Assembly: GCA_051005875.1 (NCBI GenBank)
Contig: JBPCIX010000021.1
Span: forward strand, 5,783 to 69,782
Origin: Actinomycetota bacterium
Lineage (GTDB): Bacteria > Actinomycetota > CADDZG01 > JAHWKV01
Length of the DNA: 64,000 nt
Direction: 5' to 3'
Part shown: positions 5,918 to 15,257 of the stretch, piece after piece
Layout: every line of letters starts with the position of its first letter
Numbering within the stretch: the stretch's first letter is position 1
Notes under the pieces: generated by a model
What the model saw: only the letters and a program-made list of their open reading frames with translations
Told to the model about the DNA's origin: nothing
Databases searched by the model: none
Made by a program: the position numbers and the translations under genes

Positions 5918-7696
5918 TCAACGCAATTCGCTTGGCCGGCTTGCGGCAATCTGATCGGTAATTTCTTGCATCAAGTGCTCCAATTGGTCGCCGACAAGTT
6001 CTTCGCGCTCCAACAATTCGTCGCGAATCCGCTCGACGGCGAACCTGCGGCTTTCCAGCAGGGCCCTCACCTCGCTCTTGCATTGCTTGAGGATCATGTC
6101 TACTTCTTCCTTAACTTGCGTGTCGGAAAGCATCGCAGAGTAACGATCCCCACCGTAGCTGGGGGTTAAAACCTCATACGAGATTAAGCGCCGGCCCATC
6201 CCGTAGCGTCCCACGTAGTTGAGAGCCAAAATCGTGCACCAATAAAGGTCGCTTGAGGGGCCCGTCGTAGATGTTTTGAACCAGATTTCTTCCGCTACCT
6301 GACCGGCGAGGAAGACCTTCATTTCGCCGAGCATTTCTTCTTTGGTGTCGCTGAACCGCTCTTCGAGATCGACCGTGTGAACGACGCCGAGCGTGGACTC
6401 ACGCTTCACGATTGAGATCATCTGAATCTGCTTGTCCTTGGCTTGCAGTTCCCGGGAAACAACCGCGTGGCCGGCCTCGTGTACTGCCGTCATGACTTTT
6501 TCATCCGGGGTGTATTTCACTTTTTGCTTCAGACCGATGTCGTCGATCATCTTGGCTTGCCAAACATCCGCCCACGAAAGCGACTCGCGGCCATCTTGCA
6601 ACGCCACTATCAAGCCTTCGTTGATGATGTTCTTGATTCGGGCCGGTGAGTAGTGGATGGTCGCCTGAGCAAATTTTTCGAGATCGATCTCGTCGTGGCT
6701 TACTTTGTCCAGGTAGTACTTGATGACGTCTTTGCGCCCTTCTTTGTCGGGCAACCCGACATGAATCTTGCGGTCGAACCGCCCGGGCCTGAGCAAAGCG
6801 GGGTCAAGGTCGATCGCCCTGTTCGTGGCCCCGATAATCAAGATGTTGTAAGAAGGCACCTTCGGGGCCATGTGAAACAGGCGCCGCAGGTGGCGCTTCA
6901 AGCCCTTAGGCATGACCAGGCCGTCCATCTGAACTAATAGTTCGTTGATGATGCCCATGCCGCCACCGCCACCGCCCATGCCGCCCGGCACGACCATTTG
7001 CGCAAACCTGCCAAACCCTGGGGTGGACGCGGCAGCAGGCATCGCTCCGCGGGATCCAATGGCGTCGATTTCGTCGATGAAGATAACCGCCCCGTCATAG
7101 ATTCGGGCGAACTTTTTCGCCTTGCGAAATAGTTGGGCGACCCTCAGATTGCCGATCCCGAAAAACATATTTGCGAATCCGCTGGCGGGCGTGTAGATGA
7201 AGGGCACCCCAACTGTGCCTGCAACCGCCTTCGCCATCAAAGTCTTACCGGTACCGGGGGGGCCCTCGAACAGCAACCCATGAGGAGGATAGCCGCCGAT
7301 TTTCTTAAAGTCTCGATATCCCCTGAACAACTTAACAACTTCCTGCACGGACTCGACGACCGGCTCTTGCCCCCGGACATCCTCGAAAGTGACGTCGTAT
7401 TCCTTCGGATAGATCGTGTAGGAGCGCCCTCGAGACAGGAACCAAAACAAAGCTCCGAACTGCACAATCATGAAAAGAGCCGCGGCAAGGAATGTTCCGA
7501 ATAAGCTGAAGATGGTGCCCAGTGCATCGCTATGCCCGCACGGACGCACCGTTCCGGCCAACGCGTCGCCGCACTCCTTGACTTTGTCCCCCGGAAAAGG
7601 CGATCCGTAAATGACTATCGAGGCGAAAATTGAATATAGGAAAGTCACGACGACAATACGGGGGAGCCAAATGCGCAGCCTGTTAATAAAAGTCAT
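5918..7696 (-). CDS. ftsH: FtsH-family membrane AAA+ zinc protease (paralogue)
   Basis: Two N-terminal TM helices, Walker A GPPGTGKT, Walker B IFIDEID, SRH TNR...DPALLRPGRFDR, HEAGH zinc motif, SSDL. Confidence 0.88.
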   Translation of the reverse strand: MTFINRLRIWLPRIVVVTFLYSIFASIVIYGSPFPGDKVKECGDALAGTVRPCGHSDALGTIFSLFGTFLAAALFMIVQFGALFWFLSRGRSYTIYPKEYDVTFEDVRGQEPVVESVQEVVKLFRGYRDFKKIGGYPPHGLLFEGPPGTGKTLMAKAVAGTVGVPFIYTPASGFANMFFGIGNLRVAQLFRKAKKFARIYDGAVIFIDEIDAIGSRGAMPAAASTPGFGRFAQMVVPGGMGGGGGGMGIINELLVQMDGLVMPKGLKRHLRRLFHMAPKVPSYNILIIGATNRAIDLDPALLRPGRFDRKIHVGLPDKEGRKDVIKYYLDKVSHDEIDLEKFAQATIHYSPARIKNIINEGLIVALQDGRESLSWADVWQAKMIDDIGLKQKVKYTPDEKVMTAVHEAGHAVVSRELQAKDKQIQMISIVKRESTLGVVHTVDLEERFSDTKEEMLGEMKVFLAGQVAEEIWFKTSTTGPSSDLYWCTILALNYVGRYGMGRRLISYEVLTPSYGGDRYSAMLSDTQVKEEVDMILKQCKSEVRALLESRRFAVERIRDELLEREELVGDQLEHLMQEITDQIAASRPSELR

Positions 7697-7765
7697 GGCT
7701 TCCAATCTTAGAGGGCTTTTCAATTATAGGGCCGCGCTTGTTACAGCTATGGGGCTACGCCCTCG

Positions 7766-8365
7766 TCAGCTTTCCTCGCCGAGGCTCCCTCGAAACGGCC
7801 GATCGTGCGGCTCGACACCGAAAAGGGGCGGTTCAAGGCCGCTCTTTTCGAAAAGATCCTCGATGGCCTGCTTTTCCCACCCCAACTGCCTGAGTTGGTG
7901 GATGAGGTTGATGGGGGCCAGATCCTTCCCGCAGGCCGAGCAATACGAGGTCTGCTCGTCACGCTCGGGCAGCGGGCGGCCGCAATAGCCGCACCGGTCG
8001 CCCTGGGTCCTGCCTTCGGGATAGGTTTCGTACCCGTCAAGAAAGCCGCGGGCATAATCCCAGCTCACGTACTCGTCGGGGTCGGGCTCCCATGCGGGCT
8101 CATGGACGGGGGTTTTTCCGGATTCAAGAATTTGTTCGAGATTGCCCGCGAGCAGGTCCCACCCGAGGAAATGGTCATCTTCGCAATCTGGACAAAAAAC
8201 AACTACTCCTTTAATGCCCCGTGACCCAATCACGGACTTCAGGGTCTTAACATCCAAGAGATCCTGGTGGAGAGCCTCGCGCTCGGAGTCATCGATCGGG
8301 CCTACATCGTCGTCGTCGTCGGAGTCATCGAAGTCTGGTTCGTCTATATTCTGATCTCCGGCCAT
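7766..8365 (-). CDS. DUF5319 family protein with extra C-terminal zinc-ribbon-like region
   Basis: VFCPDCEDDHFLGWDLL...VHEPAWEPDPDEYVSWDYARGFLDG, then CGYCG...CSACG. Confidence 0.8.
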   Translation of the reverse strand: MAGDQNIDEPDFDDSDDDDDVGPIDDSEREALHQDLLDVKTLKSVIGSRGIKGVVVFCPDCEDDHFLGWDLLAGNLEQILESGKTPVHEPAWEPDPDEYVSWDYARGFLDGYETYPEGRTQGDRCGYCGRPLPERDEQTSYCSACGKDLAPINLIHQLRQLGWEKQAIEDLFEKSGLEPPLFGVEPHDRPFRGSLGEES

Positions 8366-8407: not shown

Positions 8408-8638
8408 TTGCTGGAATTGCGCATTGGCATCGTGGATTCACCGAAGGAGCTGTCGCTCGAAGTTGACCAAAAGCAAGACGAAGTCAAGGCTTCAGTCGAA
8501 GCTGCTGTAAACGAGGGCTCCAGCATTCTTTGGGTGACAGACCGCAAAGGCAAACAAGTTGGCGTACCGGCAGGCAAAGTGGCTTATGTTGAAATTGACA
8601 CCGAATCGGCCGCTCGCTCCGTAGGATTTACACCATGA
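8408..8638 (+). CDS. DUF3107 family protein
   Basis: RBS AGGAG plus TTG; ELRIGIVDSPKELSLE...LWVTDRKGKQVGVPAGKVAYVEI. Confidence 0.88.
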   Translation: MLELRIGIVDSPKELSLEVDQKQDEVKASVEAAVNEGSSILWVTDRKGKQVGVPAGKVAYVEIDTESAARSVGFTP

Positions 8639-9048
8639 CAGGGGGGCCTCCCGAGAATTTCGCCTCGTTGCTGCGTGCCCGCAGAGGTTACCTGGCCACC
8701 CTCGGCGCCGAGGGCTTCCCACATGTTTTGCCGGTTTGCTTCACATGGGCCGGCGACACAGTCTGGACTGCAATTGACGGCAAACGGAAAGCAGGTTCGC
8801 CCCTGCAAAGGCTGGCCGATGTCCAACCGAACTCTAAGGTGTCATTTATGGTCGACCGCTGGGACGAAGACTGGACCCGCCTGGCATGGTTGCAGGCACG
8901 GGGCAAGGCTCGCCAAATATCGAAGGGTCCGGAAGCCGAAAAAGCGATCGAGGCCCTGAAGAGTAAGTACTCGCAGTATTCGGACACGACCCTGGAAGGG
9001 CCGGTGCTTTCCATAGAAGTAGAGCGCTGGTTGTCCTGGGAGGCCTAA
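8635..9048 (+). CDS. PPOX class probable F420-dependent oxidoreductase
   Basis: LATLGAEGFPHVLPVCF...AIDGKRK...DRWDEDWTRLAWLQARG; ATGA overlap with DUF3107. Confidence 0.85.
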   Translation: MTGGPPENFASLLRARRGYLATLGAEGFPHVLPVCFTWAGDTVWTAIDGKRKAGSPLQRLADVQPNSKVSFMVDRWDEDWTRLAWLQARGKARQISKGPEAEKAIEALKSKYSQYSDTTLEGPVLSIEVERWLSWEA

Positions 9049-9104: not shown

Positions 9105-9181
9105 CCGCTTCACCTGAGCATCTCACTTAAGGTGTATCGGGGGGCCGATCATCATTAACCCAAGCACAAGGAGGGGGCACT

Positions 9182-10417
9182 ATGCGAAAAGTATTAGCGG
9201 CTTCATTTGCCGTTCTAGCGTTGCTGGCTTCAGGATGTACCCCGAAGGAATCCACCACCCCCGCGCCCAGCGCGACGACCGACGAAGGATCCGAAACGTT
9301 CACAGTCGATGTGGACGGTACGTCCGACAAGTTCGCCCTGGCTACGCTTTCGTTTTTTCCCAACGAACTGAGCGTGCATCCCGGCGACACTGTGGACTTT
9401 AAGGAAATCTTTACCGGCGAGCCCCACACGGCAGCGTTGGGAACCACAATTGATGCGGCAATGGCCGCCTTTGACAAGCTGACGCCAGAACAGAAGGAGG
9501 CCGAAGACACCCCACCGCCTCCGGAGTTCTTAAAGGTGCCTTTCGTCTTCCCCGATGACGAGGCTTCCGGTCCTCCTGCTGAAGGCCCTCCCGGTCCTCC
9601 CGCTTTGGAACAGTCCGCCGCTCAGCCCTGTTTCCTGGATACCGGGGACCCACCCGTCTCGAAGAATGGGAGCGCGCCTGCCTGCCCGAAGCGCGAACAA
9701 CCTGAATTCAACGGAACCCAAACCTTGTTCAGCAGCGGCTACCTGGCGGAGGACGACAACTTCCCTGTGAAATTTGCCAGCGACACCAAGCCGGGGACCT
9801 ACAACGTAATGTGCCTCGTCCACGGACCTGATATGACGGCAAAAATCACGGTCGCCGACAAGGGCACCAAAATAGCCACCCCCGACGAAGTCGCCGACAA
9901 GGGCAAAGAACAGGTCGAAAAGCTCGTCGCGGATCTTTCGCCCGATGTAGAAAAGGCCAAGAGCGCAACTGCCGACAAGGCCGTAGCCGGTACTGGATCA
10001 GAAAAGGTGAGAGGCGCTTTCGTCGCTGAGTTCCTGCCGAAGGAAGTCTCCGTTAAGGTCGGCGAAGCAGTATCGTGGACTACTTTCCATTTCCACACCA
10101 TTTCGTTTAACGCCCCCCAAGATGCGATCGGTGGGGCGCTTATTAAGGATTCGGATGGAACTGTGAAGATTGCAGTCAAGGCCGGCGAGACGACTAAGGG
10201 GGCCCCTGAAATTCCTCCGGACGTCGGCGGTGGCGAGGCGAAGAAGCCGACAACTCTCCAGGCCACCTACGATGGGTCCGGCTTCTTCAACTCCGGGATA
10301 TTCGGTTCGTTCCCCCCTAATCAGGTGACCTACAAGGTCAAATTCACCAAGGCCGGGACGTACGACCTTCAGTGCCTGGTTCACCCAGACATGAAGGGCA
10401 AGGTAACCGTAGGCTAA
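9182..10417 (+). CDS. lipoprotein with two cupredoxin (type-1 copper) domains
   Basis: Lipobox LLASGC. Site 1 EPHT...CLVHGPDM; site 2 FHTISF...CLVHPDM. Confidence 0.85.
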   Translation: MRKVLAASFAVLALLASGCTPKESTTPAPSATTDEGSETFTVDVDGTSDKFALATLSFFPNELSVHPGDTVDFKEIFTGEPHTAALGTTIDAAMAAFDKLTPEQKEAEDTPPPPEFLKVPFVFPDDEASGPPAEGPPGPPALEQSAAQPCFLDTGDPPVSKNGSAPACPKREQPEFNGTQTLFSSGYLAEDDNFPVKFASDTKPGTYNVMCLVHGPDMTAKITVADKGTKIATPDEVADKGKEQVEKLVADLSPDVEKAKSATADKAVAGTGSEKVRGAFVAEFLPKEVSVKVGEAVSWTTFHFHTISFNAPQDAIGGALIKDSDGTVKIAVKAGETTKGAPEIPPDVGGGEAKKPTTLQATYDGSGFFNSGIFGSFPPNQVTYKVKFTKAGTYDLQCLVHPDMKGKVTVG

Positions 10418-10424
10418 GGCGGTT

Positions 10425-10465
10425 CCTCCCCGGCCCACAGCGGTGATGGTTGCGGGCTGGGGAGG
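10425..10465. terminator. strong intergenic hairpin (terminator or mRNA stabiliser)
   Basis: CCTCCCCGGCCC/GGGCTGGGGAGG 12-bp stem; no U tract. Confidence 0.5.
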
Positions 10466-10492
10466 GTCAACCTCTTAGTCAGGGGTCAGAAA

Positions 10493-13400
10493 TTGAGGTA
10501 TCGCGGGGCACGGTCTGTGCGCCTGGCGTGGGTGTTGTTGGCCGTGGGGGCATTGTTGCTACCGCTCTCGCAGCCGGGAGCGGGCGCCGGGCCATCCAAG
10601 CCGGACGGACACAGGGATCACGTTCATAAGGCTTCGTCGACGGCCGGAAGCCCAAAACCTTCCGGACATGAATCAGCCGAAGGGCTGCGCCTCGCCCAAA
10701 CTAAGGGTGAATCTGTGGATCCAGGGCCGGGCTGTAAATCCGGAGCTGTCGTGCGCAATTACAAGGTTGCCGCCATCGATGTTGACATCTCGATTAACCG
10801 GTTCCTGGACCACGATCCCCAGGGGCGCATGTACGTTCTGGAAAAAGAACTGCCCAGAGTTCGCCGGGAAGAGGCGCAAAATGCCGCTGCCCGCGAGGCC
10901 TCGGCCAGCGGCTTAGAGCCCGCCGTCACGGTCGGCCTGCAAGGCGACGCCATCCAGCCGCTAACGCTACGAGTCAATCAAGGCGAATGCCTGAGGATTC
11001 GCCTCAGAAACGCAATGAAGACCCAGCCGGCCAGTCTGCACCTCCACGGCGCCTCCTTGCGCGTCCGGGGCGCTGGACCGGCCATTGCCAACAACCCCGC
11101 AGCCACCGCGCGCCGCGGCCAGTCGGTGACCTATGAGTGGATGGTGGACCGAGCCGAGCCCGAGGGCACCCACTACTTCCACAGTCATGGAGATCTGCGT
11201 GAGCAAACCTCTCACGGGCTGTTCGGCGCCGTGATAGTTGAGCCCGCAGGGTCGAAGTGGCTCGATCCACTCGATCCTAAGGGCGAGCGCCCGCTTGAAA
11301 GCGGCTGGGCGGCCATCATTCAAACCGGCAAGAAGGGCGGGAGCTTTCGCGAATTCGCACTCTACTACCACGAAATAGGCCACGAAAACTACCGCCTACT
11401 GGGCAAGGAAGGTGAGTTCGTCCCCCTTGTCGACACCCTTACCAACTCGTACAGGCCCGGCGCCAGGGCAATCAACTACCGCAGCGAGCCTTTCTCAAAC
11501 CGGCTGGAATTGCAGAACGCCATGATGGGCAAGTTTGACGAGGCAGTCGCCTACAGCTCGTACTCCTTCGGCGACCCTGCAACTCCTATCGGGAGAAGTT
11601 ATCTCGGCGACGCGACCCGCCAGCGAGTAATTCACGGCGGCAGTGAGGTAGCTCACGTGCACCACGTTCATGGCGGTTCCATTCGCTGGCGGCGCCAGCC
11701 GGGGGCCGAACCGCCGGGGGCCTCAGGCCTGCAAAAACATCCTCCGCTGCTGCCGAAGGTATCCGAGCGAACTGATTCTCAAACGATTGAGCCTTCCGAG
11801 AGCTTCGACGTCCAAAATGAGTGCGGAGCAGGAGGATGCCAGCAGAGCCCGGGCGACTTTTTGATTCATTGCCATGTCGCCCACCATTACTTTGCAGGCA
11901 TGTGGGGGCTGTGGCGCGTTTACAACACTCTGCAAGATGGGCCGGCCTCGACCGACGGACTCCCACCCCTGGCTGAACTGCCAGACGCGCGCGCCAAACA
12001 ACTGGCCGCCGTCGATTCGACGGGGCTGGTGGGAAAGACCATTGAATGGTCGGGAAACAAGCTTGTTGTCGATAAACCCGGCCTCGCCACCGTGGTTGAG
12101 GCGCAGCTGCCCCCGGCGGGCCGGGCGAAGGGCTACGACGCCTCGGTGCTCGATTGGACAAAGGAGGGCGAGCTTTATCTCAATGAACCCGACGCAACCC
12201 AGGCGTGGCCGGGTTACCGGCCCACAACTCCCGGCAGGCGCAGGCCCTTTCAGTTCGACCCCGCCACAGGCAAGCTTGCTTATCCTTTTTTGCGCCCCCA
12301 ACTAGGCAAGCGGCCGCCGTTTCCTCCCGATCACAGCCCCGCGCCGTTTCTGGATCCGGTCATGAGCGGCCCCGGTCGCACTGAGCCACCGCCGCCTGGG
12401 TCGAACGGGCCTGCGAGTGTCTGCCCAACCGGCGCCCAGGTCAAGCCGTTCCAGCTTCAGGCGATCACGCTGCCCATTGCTCTCAATCAGAAGACCAAAC
12501 TTGTTGATCCCAACGGCGAGATCTTCGTCCTTAAGGATCAGGAAGACGCAATCCGGGCGAACCCGGCCTTGCGTGCCCCGCTGACCATCAGGGCGAATGC
12601 AGCACAGGATTGTGTGGACATATTGCTGAGAAGCGAGCTTGAGGATTCTCCGGAAAATAACGGCTTCGCCAAAGTTAATGTCCATATTCACTTTGTTCAG
12701 TTTGATGTTCAGGCATCGGACGGCGTAATAGCCGGGTACAACTACGAACAGTCGGTGCGGCCATTTGCTATAGAAGGTGAGAAACTCGCCACAACGACGC
12801 CCGCTGGATCCACATCAATTGCTTTGACCTCGGCGGAGCGATTTCAGCCCGGCGTGCTTGTGGGGATAGGAATGGACCAGGGCGAAACCTTTGAAGCCGG
12901 GAAGGTCAAAGCGGTTGCGGACCGCTCGCTGATACTTGAATCGCCTCTTCAGCATCAGCACGCATCCGGCGAGTATGTGAGCACTGAGTTCATTAGGTCG
13001 CGCTGGTACCCCGACGTCCAGTTCGGCACCGCCTATTTCCACGACCACGTCAATGCGGTTTCGTCTTGGAAGCACGGGCTCTTCGGCGCGTTAATTTCCG
13101 AGCCCCCCGGTTCCTCTTATCACGATCCCCACAGCGGATCCGAGGTCCGAAGCGGCGCCATAGCCGACATCAGAACCGTGGGCAAGGTTTCCGCCGATGT
13201 GAAAGGAAGCTTCCGCGAGATGGTTTTGTTTATCCAGGACGACAACCCGATAACCCAAACCGGGGCCGATACGGGCGGTTCCTTCAACCTGCGGGTCAGC
13301 CCAATCGCCGATGGCTCCGCCGACCCGGGCAACCTTTTTAGCAGCAAGTTGCAGGGAGACCCAGAAACCCCCTTGGTCGAGGCGTTCCTCGGAGATCCGA

Positions 13401-14866
13401 TCGTCTTTCGAACCCTGGCGGCCGGATCGAACGAGGTGACCACCTTTCACATTGACGGCCATTGGTTCAGGGTTGAGCCGTTCAGCAAGACATCCCCCCC
13501 GACCGGGACGGTCCACCTGGGTATTTCCGAGCGTTACGACCTGATGGTTCCGCGGGCGGGGGGGCCGCAGGAGCGGTCGGGAGATTACCTTTACTACAGT
13601 GGAAGGGCGTCGAAGTTCAAAGCGGGCAATTGGGGGATTGTGCGAGTTCGCGACGCGAAGGATCCCTCCACCCTAAAGAAGTTGCCGGGCCGGTCACCCG
13701 CTCAGACGCCTGCGAGCTCTGTTTGTCCGACCTCGGCCCCCACCAAGCGCTTCGACGTGGCGGCGACGCACAGTGGCAAGGGCCTTCGATACGTTCTTAG
13801 CTCCGCCGCCGGGGCCAAGTCACCGGGGGCGCCCTTGGTCCTGCATGTGAATGTCGGCGACTGCATCAAGGTTGATCTGAACAACAAAACCGACGGCAAG
13901 GTTTCGTTTCACGCCGATATGCTGGCTTTCGACCCTGCCGATTCGGCCGGCGTGAACGCGGGCGTCAATCCGGACCAACTCGTCGAGGTCGGCGGCAAGA
14001 GGACATATACCTACTACGCCGATCCGCAGGTGGGCGAGACCACGGCGCTCATCCGCGACTGGGGAAACGTCTTAAAAAATCCTAAGCTCGGTCTTTACGG
14101 GGCCATCGTGGTTAGCCCCGCAGGAGCTACCTTTAGGACGCCGGCCACCGGCAAGAGTATCCCCGGCGGCGCGGGATGGGCGGTGGACGTTATCCCCCGC
14201 AAGGGTCGCCCTTACCGAGACCTCTCGCTGTTCATGCAAGACGAGGACGTCGCTATTGGATCCCACCGAATGCCTTATACGAGGGATGTAAAAGGTAATG
14301 CAACCATCAACTATTCTTCAGAGCCGATCGCGAAAAGGCTCGCCGACAACCCTGATCCGGCCTTGGCCTTCAGCACCAAGGCCCACGGCGTTCCCGCAAC
14401 GCCGTTGCTCGAAGCGGTTGCGGGAGACCGAGTCAAGGTTCACGTTTTGGCGCCTTACAGCGAGCAGGCCCAAGTCTTTTCAATTGAAGGGCACCGTTGG
14501 GCGTTCGAGCCCGGCCGGGCCGGTTCAAATGAATTAAGTTCCGTAGCAATTGGCGGGCTCGAGGCAATTACCCTTGATATTCAAAGCGCCGGCGGTAAAG
14601 AAAAATCGGCCGGCGACTACGTTTATGGAAACCATAGAGCGCCCTTCACTGAGGCCGGAATGTGGGGCATATTCCGCGTCCACGCCGCCGGAAGGCAGGG
14701 AAAATTAGAGGCCCTTCCAGGCTGCGATGAATCAGAGGTGAACGGGTGTGAGAGTAAAGTTTCGCCAATTACTTTGGTAACGATTGCTGCGGGCGCTGGG
14801 GTCTTGTTTCTCATCTTCGCCCGAATCCGGCGCATCGGCAGAAACCTAGCGCCCAACGGAACCTGA
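10493..14866 (+). CDS. very large secreted, membrane-anchored multicopper oxidase (MnxG-like six-domain type)
   Basis: Signal peptide; LHLHG, YFHSH, HVHHVHG, HCHVAHHYFAGM, VHIHF, YFHDH; degenerate later sites; C-terminal TM helix plus basic tail. Confidence 0.88.
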   Translation: MRYRGARSVRLAWVLLAVGALLLPLSQPGAGAGPSKPDGHRDHVHKASSTAGSPKPSGHESAEGLRLAQTKGESVDPGPGCKSGAVVRNYKVAAIDVDISINRFLDHDPQGRMYVLEKELPRVRREEAQNAAAREASASGLEPAVTVGLQGDAIQPLTLRVNQGECLRIRLRNAMKTQPASLHLHGASLRVRGAGPAIANNPAATARRGQSVTYEWMVDRAEPEGTHYFHSHGDLREQTSHGLFGAVIVEPAGSKWLDPLDPKGERPLESGWAAIIQTGKKGGSFREFALYYHEIGHENYRLLGKEGEFVPLVDTLTNSYRPGARAINYRSEPFSNRLELQNAMMGKFDEAVAYSSYSFGDPATPIGRSYLGDATRQRVIHGGSEVAHVHHVHGGSIRWRRQPGAEPPGASGLQKHPPLLPKVSERTDSQTIEPSESFDVQNECGAGGCQQSPGDFLIHCHVAHHYFAGMWGLWRVYNTLQDGPASTDGLPPLAELPDARAKQLAAVDSTGLVGKTIEWSGNKLVVDKPGLATVVEAQLPPAGRAKGYDASVLDWTKEGELYLNEPDATQAWPGYRPTTPGRRRPFQFDPATGKLAYPFLRPQLGKRPPFPPDHSPAPFLDPVMSGPGRTEPPPPGSNGPASVCPTGAQVKPFQLQAITLPIALNQKTKLVDPNGEIFVLKDQEDAIRANPALRAPLTIRANAAQDCVDILLRSELEDSPENNGFAKVNVHIHFVQFDVQASDGVIAGYNYEQSVRPFAIEGEKLATTTPAGSTSIALTSAERFQPGVLVGIGMDQGETFEAGKVKAVADRSLILESPLQHQHASGEYVSTEFIRSRWYPDVQFGTAYFHDHVNAVSSWKHGLFGALISEPPGSSYHDPHSGSEVRSGAIADIRTVGKVSADVKGSFREMVLFIQDDNPITQTGADTGGSFNLRVSPIADGSADPGNLFSSKLQGDPETPLVEAFLGDPIVFRTLAAGSNEVTTFHIDGHWFRVEPFSKTSPPTGTVHLGISERYDLMVPRAGGPQERSGDYLYYSGRASKFKAGNWGIVRVRDAKDPSTLKKLPGRSPAQTPASSVCPTSAPTKRFDVAATHSGKGLRYVLSSAAGAKSPGAPLVLHVNVGDCIKVDLNNKTDGKVSFHADMLAFDPADSAGVNAGVNPDQLVEVGGKRTYTYYADPQVGETTALIRDWGNVLKNPKLGLYGAIVVSPAGATFRTPATGKSIPGGAGWAVDVIPRKGRPYRDLSLFMQDEDVAIGSHRMPYTRDVKGNATINYSSEPIAKRLADNPDPALAFSTKAHGVPATPLLEAVAGDRVKVHVLAPYSEQAQVFSIEGHRWAFEPGRAGSNELSSVAIGGLEAITLDIQSAGGKEKSAGDYVYGNHRAPFTEAGMWGIFRVHAAGRQGKLEALPGCDESEVNGCESKVSPITLVTIAAGAGVLFLIFARIRRIGRNLAPNGT

Positions 14867-14876
14867 CCGTCTAAAC

Positions 14877-15257
14877 CTAACCGTCTAAGGGATGGCCGAT
14901 CAGCGCGCCGACGCGATCCATCAACTTGGTCGGCTCGAAGGGTTTCGGGAAAACGTTTTCGTCGCCCAACTGATCCTTCAACCGGTCTAGGGCTTCATAA
15001 CGCCCACTGACGATCAACACGGGTATTTGGCTCAGCTCAGGGTCGGTCTGCAACTGACGCAAGACTTTCTCGCCATCGAGGTCCGGCATCATGAGATCGA
15101 GGATCATCAAGTCGGGCTGATCGCTTTCGGCCTTGACCAAACCATCAAAGCCATCCACAGCCTCGATGATTTCGTACCCTTCGCCCTCGAGAAGAACGTG
15201 AATCAACTCCCGAACCGAAGAATTGTCCTCAACTAAAAGCACCTTCTTGGACAGCAT
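14877..15257 (-). CDS. single-domain response regulator (CheY-like)
   Basis: VLLVEDN, ILDLMMP, VSG, KPF. Confidence 0.93.
   Translation of the reverse strand: MLSKKVLLVEDNSSVRELIHVLLEGEGYEIIEAVDGFDGLVKAESDQPDLMILDLMMPDLDGEKVLRQLQTDPELSQIPVLIVSGRYEALDRLKDQLGDENVFPKPFEPTKLMDRVGALIGHPLDG

Follow-up and report, generated by a model that had tools for sequence, protein, structure and literature searches.

Among the biological producers of manganese oxides, multicopper oxidases (MCOs) of the MnxG type are the best understood, and to our knowledge only the enzymes of Bacillus and Pseudomonas have been characterised; we know of no cupredoxin partner described for the MnxG of Pseudomonas putida. The P. 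putida protein is a genetically proven Mn(II) oxidase (PMC13689576). Bacillus MnxG acts extracellularly and requires copper-binding accessory proteins that are possibly redox-active (PMC5622069), two features to which the gene pair described here can be likened. In the Bacillus Mnx complex (MnxG with MnxE3F3; structure 9bxa) the oxidase forms a six-domain ring with one type 1 (T1) copper in domain 2 and a trinuclear cluster between domains 2 and 3, which is the arrangement of all bacterial six-domain MCOs (Vasin et al., PMC3600357). Metagenome surveys label such genes "manganese oxidase" by homology alone (PMC13439051). Here we analysed a stretch of 64,000 nucleotides from an Actinomycetota bacterium (contig JBPCIX010000021.1), hereafter the window, in which the gene for a predicted lipoprotein with two T1 cupredoxin domains (P0001) is followed by the gene for a six-domain MCO of the MnxG superfamily (P0002). 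On balance, we favour the reading that the two proteins form an extracytoplasmic, O2-reducing metal oxidase and its dedicated blue-copper redox partner.

P0002 carries all four motifs of an MCO (HxH, HxH, HxxHxH and HCHxxxHxxxxM). Its T1 motif, HCHVAHHYFAGM, spans residues 459-470; domain 2 supplies H388-x2-H391-x-H393 and H459-C460-H461-x3-H465-x4-M470, and domain 3 supplies H731-x-H733 and H850-x-H852. All 120 homologs keep the T1 and cluster ligands (100% conservation), which are also present in nearly all of the 88 superfamily members sampled. The wider set of HxH pairs in domains 1-3 is 97-100% conserved in the same homologs (89% for H232), so the copper motifs cannot be due to chance. 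These data bear out an earlier note on this DNA, which had recognised one complete T1 motif and HxH pairs in the first three domains. The note had also called the later domains degenerate, and this holds insofar as domains 4-6 have neither a T1 site nor a full cluster, but they keep invariant H986, D988, H990, E1332, H1334 and H1381. The order of the motifs, together with their conservation in the homologs and in the superfamily, predicts that domain 2 has the only T1 copper and that the trinuclear cluster lies where domains 2 and 3 meet.

The protein matches Bacillus MnxG by sequence and by fold. Its best solved match was the MnxG of Bacillus sp. PL-12 (9bxa_A), aligned by phmmer in six stretches with E 1.5e-97, all other solved MCOs giving E values of 1e-8 or worse, and the Pfam models Cu-oxidase_3 and Cu-oxidase_2 matched above their cutoffs (72.3 and 58.5 bits). 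An AlphaFold2 (AF2) model of residues 81-1280, covering domains 1-5 and leaving domain 6 outside, had a predicted local distance difference test score (pLDDT) of 84.6 and a predicted template modelling score (pTM) of 0.87. Foldseek again returned 9bxa_A first (E 1.1e-78, template modelling score (TM) 0.67), followed by ceruloplasmin (E ~1e-33, TM 0.46) and then by coagulation factors V and VIII. Six cupredoxin domains are delineated by the six stretches aligned to 9bxa_A, by a conserved Cys pair repeated three times at the starts of domains 1, 3 and 5 (C81/C166, C644/C707 and C1078/C1124) and, for domains 1-5, by the AF2 model, domain 6 being read from sequence only. Unlike Bacillus MnxG, P0002 has a signal peptide, a membrane anchor and two added stretches: about 75 beta-rich residues inserted in domain 3 and, between domains 2 and 3, a conserved subdomain of about 150 residues, which HMMER left unaligned to 9bxa and which is mostly confident in the AF2 model and contains many invariant residues. 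P. putida MnxG (model NF041487) is likewise a very large MCO that belongs to this superfamily and shares its cluster arrangement, but it has about 1950 residues, a Gram-negative host and type II secretion.

The fold search bears on whether the enzyme could instead be a laccase-like oxidase of phenolics, humic matter and recalcitrant dissolved organic carbon, with the cupredoxin as mediator or relay. MCOs are promiscuous, weak two-domain laccase matches were found in domains 1 and 6, and the carriers of the gene include SAR202, other Dehalococcoidia, Acidimicrobiales and soil Actinomycetota, which are oligotrophs tied to refractory organic matter. However, laccases, the three-domain ones among them, came far lower in the fold search, the best of any laccase (E ~1e-18) standing well behind both MnxG and ceruloplasmin, and no catabolic or aromatic-degradation genes are conserved nearby. 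In addition, the T1 site of two-domain-type and ring MCOs lies inside the ring, which fits small ions better than bulky phenolics, as indicated by PMC13151041 and by the Mnx tunnel (PMC13689576). We regard a laccase-like role as unlikely.

Even less weight, indeed hardly any, goes to copper homeostasis, in which a CueO/PcoA-type cuprous oxidase would work with a copper-buffering cupredoxin. Domain-level matches to the CopA and CueO models do exist, and one distant relative of the oxidase, P0137 (L091), is followed by genes for SCO1/SenC and LpqE-like copper chaperones. The matches are weak, however, and P0002 fails both models by far (36 bits against a cutoff of 479 for CopA, 26 against 525 for CueO). 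It has no methionine-rich segment, no copper ATPase, CopC/CopD or copper regulator is conserved beside the oxidase gene, and the copper sites of the partner are classic electron-transfer T1 sites rather than sites for buffering Cu(I).

The partner, P0001, was described in the earlier note as a lipoprotein with two complete T1 sites, and both ligand sets can indeed be read in it. In site 1, H82 is followed by C211-x2-H214-x3-M218, and in site 2, H305 is followed by C398-x2-H401-x2-M404, a loop of amicyanin length; across 35 aligned homologs, the two sets and Cys19 hardly vary. Its signal peptide, MRKVLAASFAVLALLASG-C19, ends in a lipobox cysteine as in bacterial lipoproteins, most homologs having lipoboxes of the AACG/AACS type, and the protein is predicted to be lipid-anchored. 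P0001 passes the Pfam model Copper-bind (PF00127; 40.7 bits, cutoff 21.2), fails the amicyanin equivalog TIGR02657 (48.1 bits against 110.2), whose match is confined to the C-terminal copper loop, and stays below threshold for the plastocyanin and pseudoazurin equivalogs. The AF2 model (pLDDT 90.2, pTM 0.86) predicts two cupredoxin domains on a helical spacer, the first with an insert of about 100 residues that contains C150 and C168. Foldseek found no solved structure similar to the whole chain (TM at most 0.22), and single domains superpose on plastocyanin (TM 0.73, target-normalised) and auracyanin (~0.6). The T1 set His...Cys-x2-His-x2/3-Met is shared with amicyanin, plastocyanin and auracyanin, and tethering with auracyanin, but unlike these single-domain cupredoxins P0001 joins two domains in one lipoprotein, with a long helix between them and the large insert in domain 1. 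Homologs of P0001 with about 400 residues number more than 300 and are annotated just as "plastocyanin" or hypothetical.

The top whole-chain match of P0001, a weak one, was the MCO of Nitrosopumilus maritimus (9cck). As described (PMC11761707), that protein also couples an MCO to an extra T1 cupredoxin and is linked to nitroxyl and N2O production. It is a small MCO of the two-domain type with the cupredoxin fused C-terminally in cis, whereas here the cupredoxin has its own gene and the oxidase has six domains.

Both proteins are predicted to lie outside the cytoplasmic membrane, as suggested by the signal peptide and C-terminal anchor of the oxidase and the lipobox of the cupredoxin. The earlier note had taken the oxidase to be secreted and C-terminally anchored, in agreement with the hydrophobic N-terminal signal and the C-terminal transmembrane helix, followed by a RIRRIGR tail, that we predict. 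Such a C-terminal hydrophobic helix is present in 51 of the 120 oxidase homologs (set P0004-P0122), and several of those without it have an N-terminal lipobox. Export of P0002 by twin-arginine translocation (Tat) was rejected, its sequence having no twin-arginine motif; a Tat-like motif occurs in just 11 of the 120 homologs.

The oxidase clade is almost always accompanied by a double T1 copper lipoprotein. Loss of the pairing in relatives had been named beforehand as a result that would speak against the proposed module. We found the cupredoxin gene within 1.5 kb of the oxidase gene in 44 of the 46 loci with at least 2 kb of flank on each side, over at least four phyla, Chloroflexota, Actinomycetota and Dormibacterota among them. 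Among all 80 loci a di-cupredoxin homolog adjoins the oxidase in 65, most of the others having no flanking sequence. Distances among the oxidases and distances among their partners are correlated (Mantel r 0.65, with none of 2000 permutations as high), and the only other oxidase carrier in the host order has the same pair, its partner being 40% identical to P0001. The partner gene usually lies upstream on the same strand. It lies downstream on the same strand in one Dehalococcoidia clade, and downstream and convergent in four Actinomycetota loci, three of them labelled Acidimicrobiales or Acidimicrobiaceae. BLASTP of P0001 against representative and cluster-member proteins (P0123-P0304) returned no fusion of oxidase and di-cupredoxin.

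Clustering of the flanking open reading frames (ORFs) of the 80 loci, taken at a length of at least 90 residues, gave no conserved family besides the oxidase, the cupredoxin and their shadow ORFs; chaperones, regulators, transporters and cytochromes did not emerge as conserved neighbours. An association with one-electron carriers is recurrent in the oxidase's part of the tree, as seen from the pairing itself, from a sister-clade locus (P0275, L088) in which the oxidase gene is followed by two cupredoxin-domain genes, and from P0126, also of a sister clade, in which the oxidase is extended by DUF3347 at the N-terminus and by a di-haem CCP/MauG domain at the C-terminus.

Relatives also vary in length and add-ons. 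In SAR202 and other Chloroflexota/Dehalococcoidia loci (L004, L012, L022, L027 and L078) the partner is much longer (669-996 residues), apparently with more than two cupredoxin domains, and some of these loci have two or three partner genes in tandem. P0133, from a neighbouring clade, has cadherin and Big_9 repeats.

We propose that the two-gene module would act at the cytoplasmic membrane, on its outer face. The C-terminal helix would hold the oxidase there, the T1 copper of domain 2 would form part of the catalytic core, and the H459-C460-H461 triad would wire this copper to the trinuclear cluster at the domain 2/3 interface, where O2 would be reduced to water in four one-electron steps. From its sequence conservation and its homology to the solved Mnx structure, P0002 is predicted to be a surface-tethered MCO with an intact path from T1 copper to cluster and the capability to reduce O2 to water. 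The lipoprotein with its two T1 domains would exchange single electrons with the oxidase. The flow would run from cupredoxin to oxidase, because the copper loops are amicyanin-like and the typical potentials of amicyanin-type cupredoxins favour this direction towards an MCO.

The reductant may be a metal cation oxidised at the cell surface, and Mn(II) is our leading candidate, although a tentative one, because every relative characterised so far oxidises Mn and because the six-domain ring is strongly constrained. Electrons of the membrane chain, delivered through the cupredoxin, are a less probable source, and Fe(II), organics or other donors share what likelihood is left.

If the membrane chain were the donor, electrons would pass from a quinol-oxidising complex to the di-cupredoxin, then to the oxidase and on to O2 outside the cell, a non-pumping respiratory exit without a metal substrate. 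The partner has two conserved T1 centres like those of amicyanin and plastocyanin on a membrane tether, and its single domains resemble auracyanin, a membrane-tethered respiratory/photosynthetic carrier of Chloroflexota. The oxidase holds a full O2-reducing cluster, the fusion of a sister-clade protein to a di-haem CCP/MauG domain ties the family to electron carriers, and the genome encodes a haem-copper oxidase and a di-haem cytochrome c, so that a chain able to reduce extracytoplasmic carriers exists. On the other hand, a two- or three-domain MCO would suffice for this task, leaving the strict keeping of three copper-poor domains and an Mnx-like ring unexplained. Reducing O2 on the outer side conserves no energy, the locus has no linked quinol-oxidising complex, and the module is patchy, being found in 2 of the 27 genomes of the order. 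We hold such an exit to be rather unlikely, though more probable than the other rival readings.

The reverse direction, in which Mn(II) or Fe(II) would feed electrons through the oxidase and the di-cupredoxin into the haem-copper oxidase and so support energy-conserving lithotrophy, is very improbable. A surface oxidase paired with a mobile, membrane-tethered blue-copper carrier would suit it, as would the presence of the haem-copper oxidase, where a neighbouring reading frame holds a cytochrome c domain, and conceptually it has a precedent in the rusticyanin pathway of acidophilic iron oxidisers. Nevertheless, the only T1 site is wired to an intact cluster, so that electrons should pass directly to O2. 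Amicyanin-type cupredoxins usually have lower potentials than the T1 sites of MCOs, and on these typical values the flow from oxidase to cupredoxin would be uphill. We saw no sign of autotrophy in what was examined of the 1.8-Mb genome, carbon-fixation genes not having been searched for, and the distribution within the order is patchy. The suggestion of the earlier note that the module might feed respiration is unlikely as stated, because the oxidase keeps its own full O2-reducing trinuclear cluster.

We also looked at the interface of domains 1 and 6. Ceruloplasmin and hephaestin, which are ferroxidases, have the six-domain ring in common with P0002, but their cluster sits between domains 1 and 6 and they have three T1 sites, against one T1 site and a domain 2/3 cluster here (PMC3600357); where they have the cluster, P0002 has just a partial His/Glu site. 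Its four domain 1 histidines, in H183-x-H185 and H230-x-H232, are 89-100% conserved and are lost in Bacillus MnxG, which has HFQ and CFFTDL at these places. Alignment of the internal repeats puts E1332 and H1381 of domain 6 at cluster-ligand positions, and in a closed six-domain ring E1332, H1334 and H1381 would face the domain 1 histidines. H1381 is present in 25 of the 27 superfamily members with the four histidines and in 6 of the 46 without them (Fisher p = 9e-12, on sequences that are not independent), and the tree implies at least 14 changes of the trait. H183, H185, H230, H232, H1381 and E1332 therefore probably bind a further metal, as a putative second, partial interdomain site.

A role of the cupredoxin as an in-trans T1 copper for this site was not supported. 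Beyond the near family, proteins with the four domain 1 histidines have cupredoxin neighbours in one of six contexts (L088 only), those of P0134, P0130, P0137, P0160 and P0149, all with the four histidines, having none.

An exhaustive profile-free search returned 2581 related cluster representatives, of which 559 had E values below 1e-30, and 89 sequences taken from these were used for a superfamily tree. The window's family falls in one half of it, among unnamed proteins of 1400-2200 residues, and its nearest outgroup clusters are mostly unnamed proteins of metagenome-assembled genomes. Full-length homologs with 55-66% identity come from many uncultured lineages, all as metagenome-assembled genomes: Chloroflexota (Dehalococcoidia including SAR202, Anaerolineae, Caldilineaceae and Limnocylindria), Actinomycetota (Acidimicrobiales, Mycobacteriales and Nitriliruptorales), Dormibacterota, Rokubacteria, Bipolaricaulia and Entotheonellaceae. 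The module is also present in metagenome bins (L048 and L064) that bear the label of Litorilinea aerophila, a cultured species. The oxidase tree mostly tracks phyla, with few cross-phylum placements, and the window's oxidase sits on a deep unresolved branch outside the main actinobacterial clade. The lineage was rightly called little studied, as the host order is known from 27 genomes, all draft-grade; since two of them carry the gene, the oxidase is an accessory trait.

Several points weigh against a dedicated Mn(II)-oxidising pair. Bacillus MnxG groups with Firmicutes proteins of about 1210-1280 residues in the opposite half of the superfamily tree, and P0002 fails the Pseudomonas MnxG equivalog NF041487 (137.4 bits against a cutoff of 3100). 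Its identity to Bacillus MnxG is 32% in domains 1-2 (BLASTP) and 23% over the structural alignment. The separate half of the tree and the failed model show that the oxidase is an MnxG-like superfamily member and not an ortholog of either proven Mn oxidase; the label MnxG-like given in the earlier note is accordingly right for a homolog by sequence and fold (9bxa) and too narrow if it implies the Firmicutes MnxG clade or the Pseudomonas model.

Other such points concern the partner and the further metal site. Where Bacillus has the MnxE3F3 ring, the locus has a single 411-residue double T1 lipoprotein, which is unrelated: no sequence or fold similarity to any chain of 9bxa could be detected. 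The analogy with small accessory proteins is loose, and among the flanking ORFs of at least 90 residues in the 80 loci no accessory gene besides the cupredoxin was found conserved near the oxidase. The proposed direction of electron flow follows the potentials typical of such cupredoxins. In the case of the domain 1/6 site, phylogenetically independent pairs gave a ratio of 7:1 with a median p of about 0.07, which is borderline, and domain 6 lies outside the structural model.

Finally, the di-cupredoxin type is not exclusive to the oxidase. The host genome has at least two more full-length di-cupredoxin paralogs and one fragment (C54:30049-31236, C72:10-1308 and C20:2-118; 33-38% identity), the last a C-terminal fragment at a contig end, and just one large oxidase. 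These paralogs have no oxidase beside them, and the C54 copy stands beside genes for a HisKA_3 histidine kinase, a receiver-adenylate cyclase and a cNMP-binding protein. Lipoproteins of this type thus form a general extracytoplasmic module that has several partners, and the oxidase-linked copy could have a sensing role. The C72 paralog adjoins a Na+/H+ antiporter gene.

The features of the locus are collected in Table 1.

Table 1. Position of the genes, protein domains and nucleic acid signals of the two-gene copper locus in the window
Feature	Position	Strand	Remarks
Shine-Dalgarno-like GGAGGG	9166..9171	+	Strong ribosome-binding site 10 nucleotides upstream of the ATG of the cupredoxin gene; read from the sequence
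Di-cupredoxin lipoprotein gene (P0001)	9182..10417	+	ORF and translation; 411 residues
Predicted signal peptide with lipobox LLASG-C19	9182..9238	+	Translation; Cys19 nearly invariant in 35 homologs
P0001 cupredoxin domain 1, about residues 38-225	9293..9856	+	T1 ligands H82, C211, H214, M218
Long helix linking both cupredoxin domains, residues 234-260	9881..9961	+	AF2 secondary structure, pLDDT >90
P0001 cupredoxin domain 2, about residues 266-411	9977..10414	+	T1 ligands H305, C398, H401, M404
Stable GC-rich intergenic hairpin, between cupredoxin stop and oxidase start	10425..10465	+	No T-run behind
Six-domain MnxG-type MCO gene (P0002)	10493..14866	+	1457 residues from TTG 10493; 1449 residues from GTG 10517
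P0002 domain 1	10733..11278	+	H183-x-H185 and H230-x-H232, both absent from Bacillus MnxG
P0002 domain 2	11279..11950	+	T1 ligands H388, C460, H465, M470; cluster ligands H391, H393, H459, H461
P0002 subdomain of about 150 residues between domains 2 and 3	11951..12421	+	Absent from Bacillus MnxG
P0002 domain 3	12422..13171	+	Cluster ligands H731, H733, H850, H852; beta-rich insert of about 75 residues relative to MnxG
P0002 domains 4 and 5	13172..14146	+	No T1 site or cluster; retain H986, D988, H990, H1140, D1142, R1188
P0002 domain 6	14147..14692	+	No T1 site; retains E1332, H1334, H1381
Predicted C-terminal transmembrane anchor, then basic tail RIRRIGR	14762..14824	+	C-terminal hydrophobic helix also in 51 of 120 homologs

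The two ORFs, on one strand, agree exactly with the position given in the earlier note, and the public gene call starts the oxidase eight codons downstream of the TTG, at the GTG. The intergenic spacer has 75 nucleotides. Positions 10415-10495, which include the hairpin and a second, small one, fold with -40.9 kcal/mol (z = -3.9 against shuffles), and the spacer hairpin without a T-run suggests that the two genes are on one transcript. It may serve to stabilise the upstream message or to set the ratio of the two proteins. A search of sequencing runs found the sequence in DNA runs only, from sediment and soil metagenomes.

Around the pair, a gene for a stand-alone response-regulator receiver of 126 residues (14877-15257, minus strand) meets the end of the oxidase gene in convergent orientation; genes with receiver domains occur in just 4 of the 80 related loci, never directly beside the oxidase. 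On the other side lie an FtsH-like gene with AAA and M41 protease domains (5918-7723, minus strand; 601 residues), a DUF5319 gene (7766-8365) and a PNPOx-like gene (8635-9048), which look like ordinary housekeeping context and are unlinked to the copper module in relatives. None of the window's neighbours (FtsH-like protease, DUF5319, PNPOx-like, response regulator, D-Ala carboxypeptidase, PknB and ThyX) is conserved with the oxidase.

In conclusion, the type of oxidase is known already, homologs being named "manganese oxidase" by the Joint Genome Institute (JGI). As far as its sequences tell, the clade is separate from the proven enzymes and membrane-tethered, and the two genes stay neighbours in soil, sediment and ocean bacteria of several phyla. 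In the literature searched we found no mention of the distinctness of the clade, of the near-obligate cupredoxin pairing or of the co-varying domain 1/6 site. A bolder view, which we put forward as a possibility with more doubt than confidence, is that the pair constitutes a separate and so far undescribed enzyme system in uncultured, abundant groups such as SAR202 and other Chloroflexota, Acidimicrobiia and Dormibacterota. In that system the double blue-copper lipoprotein would link the surface oxidase to the electron flow of the cell, the pair being either their main Mn(II) oxidase or a new copper-only branch of aerobic respiration, and the domain 1/6 site would be a second catalytic or substrate-binding metal centre lacking in Bacillus MnxG. 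If the pair oxidises Mn(II), a reaction of environmental importance would be assigned to uncultured lineages that are very abundant, and Mn oxidases that depend on accessory proteins would gain a second, simpler model; if the cupredoxin feeds the oxidase instead, the pair would be a new copper-only route to O2. Either way, it is small enough for a direct co-expression test.

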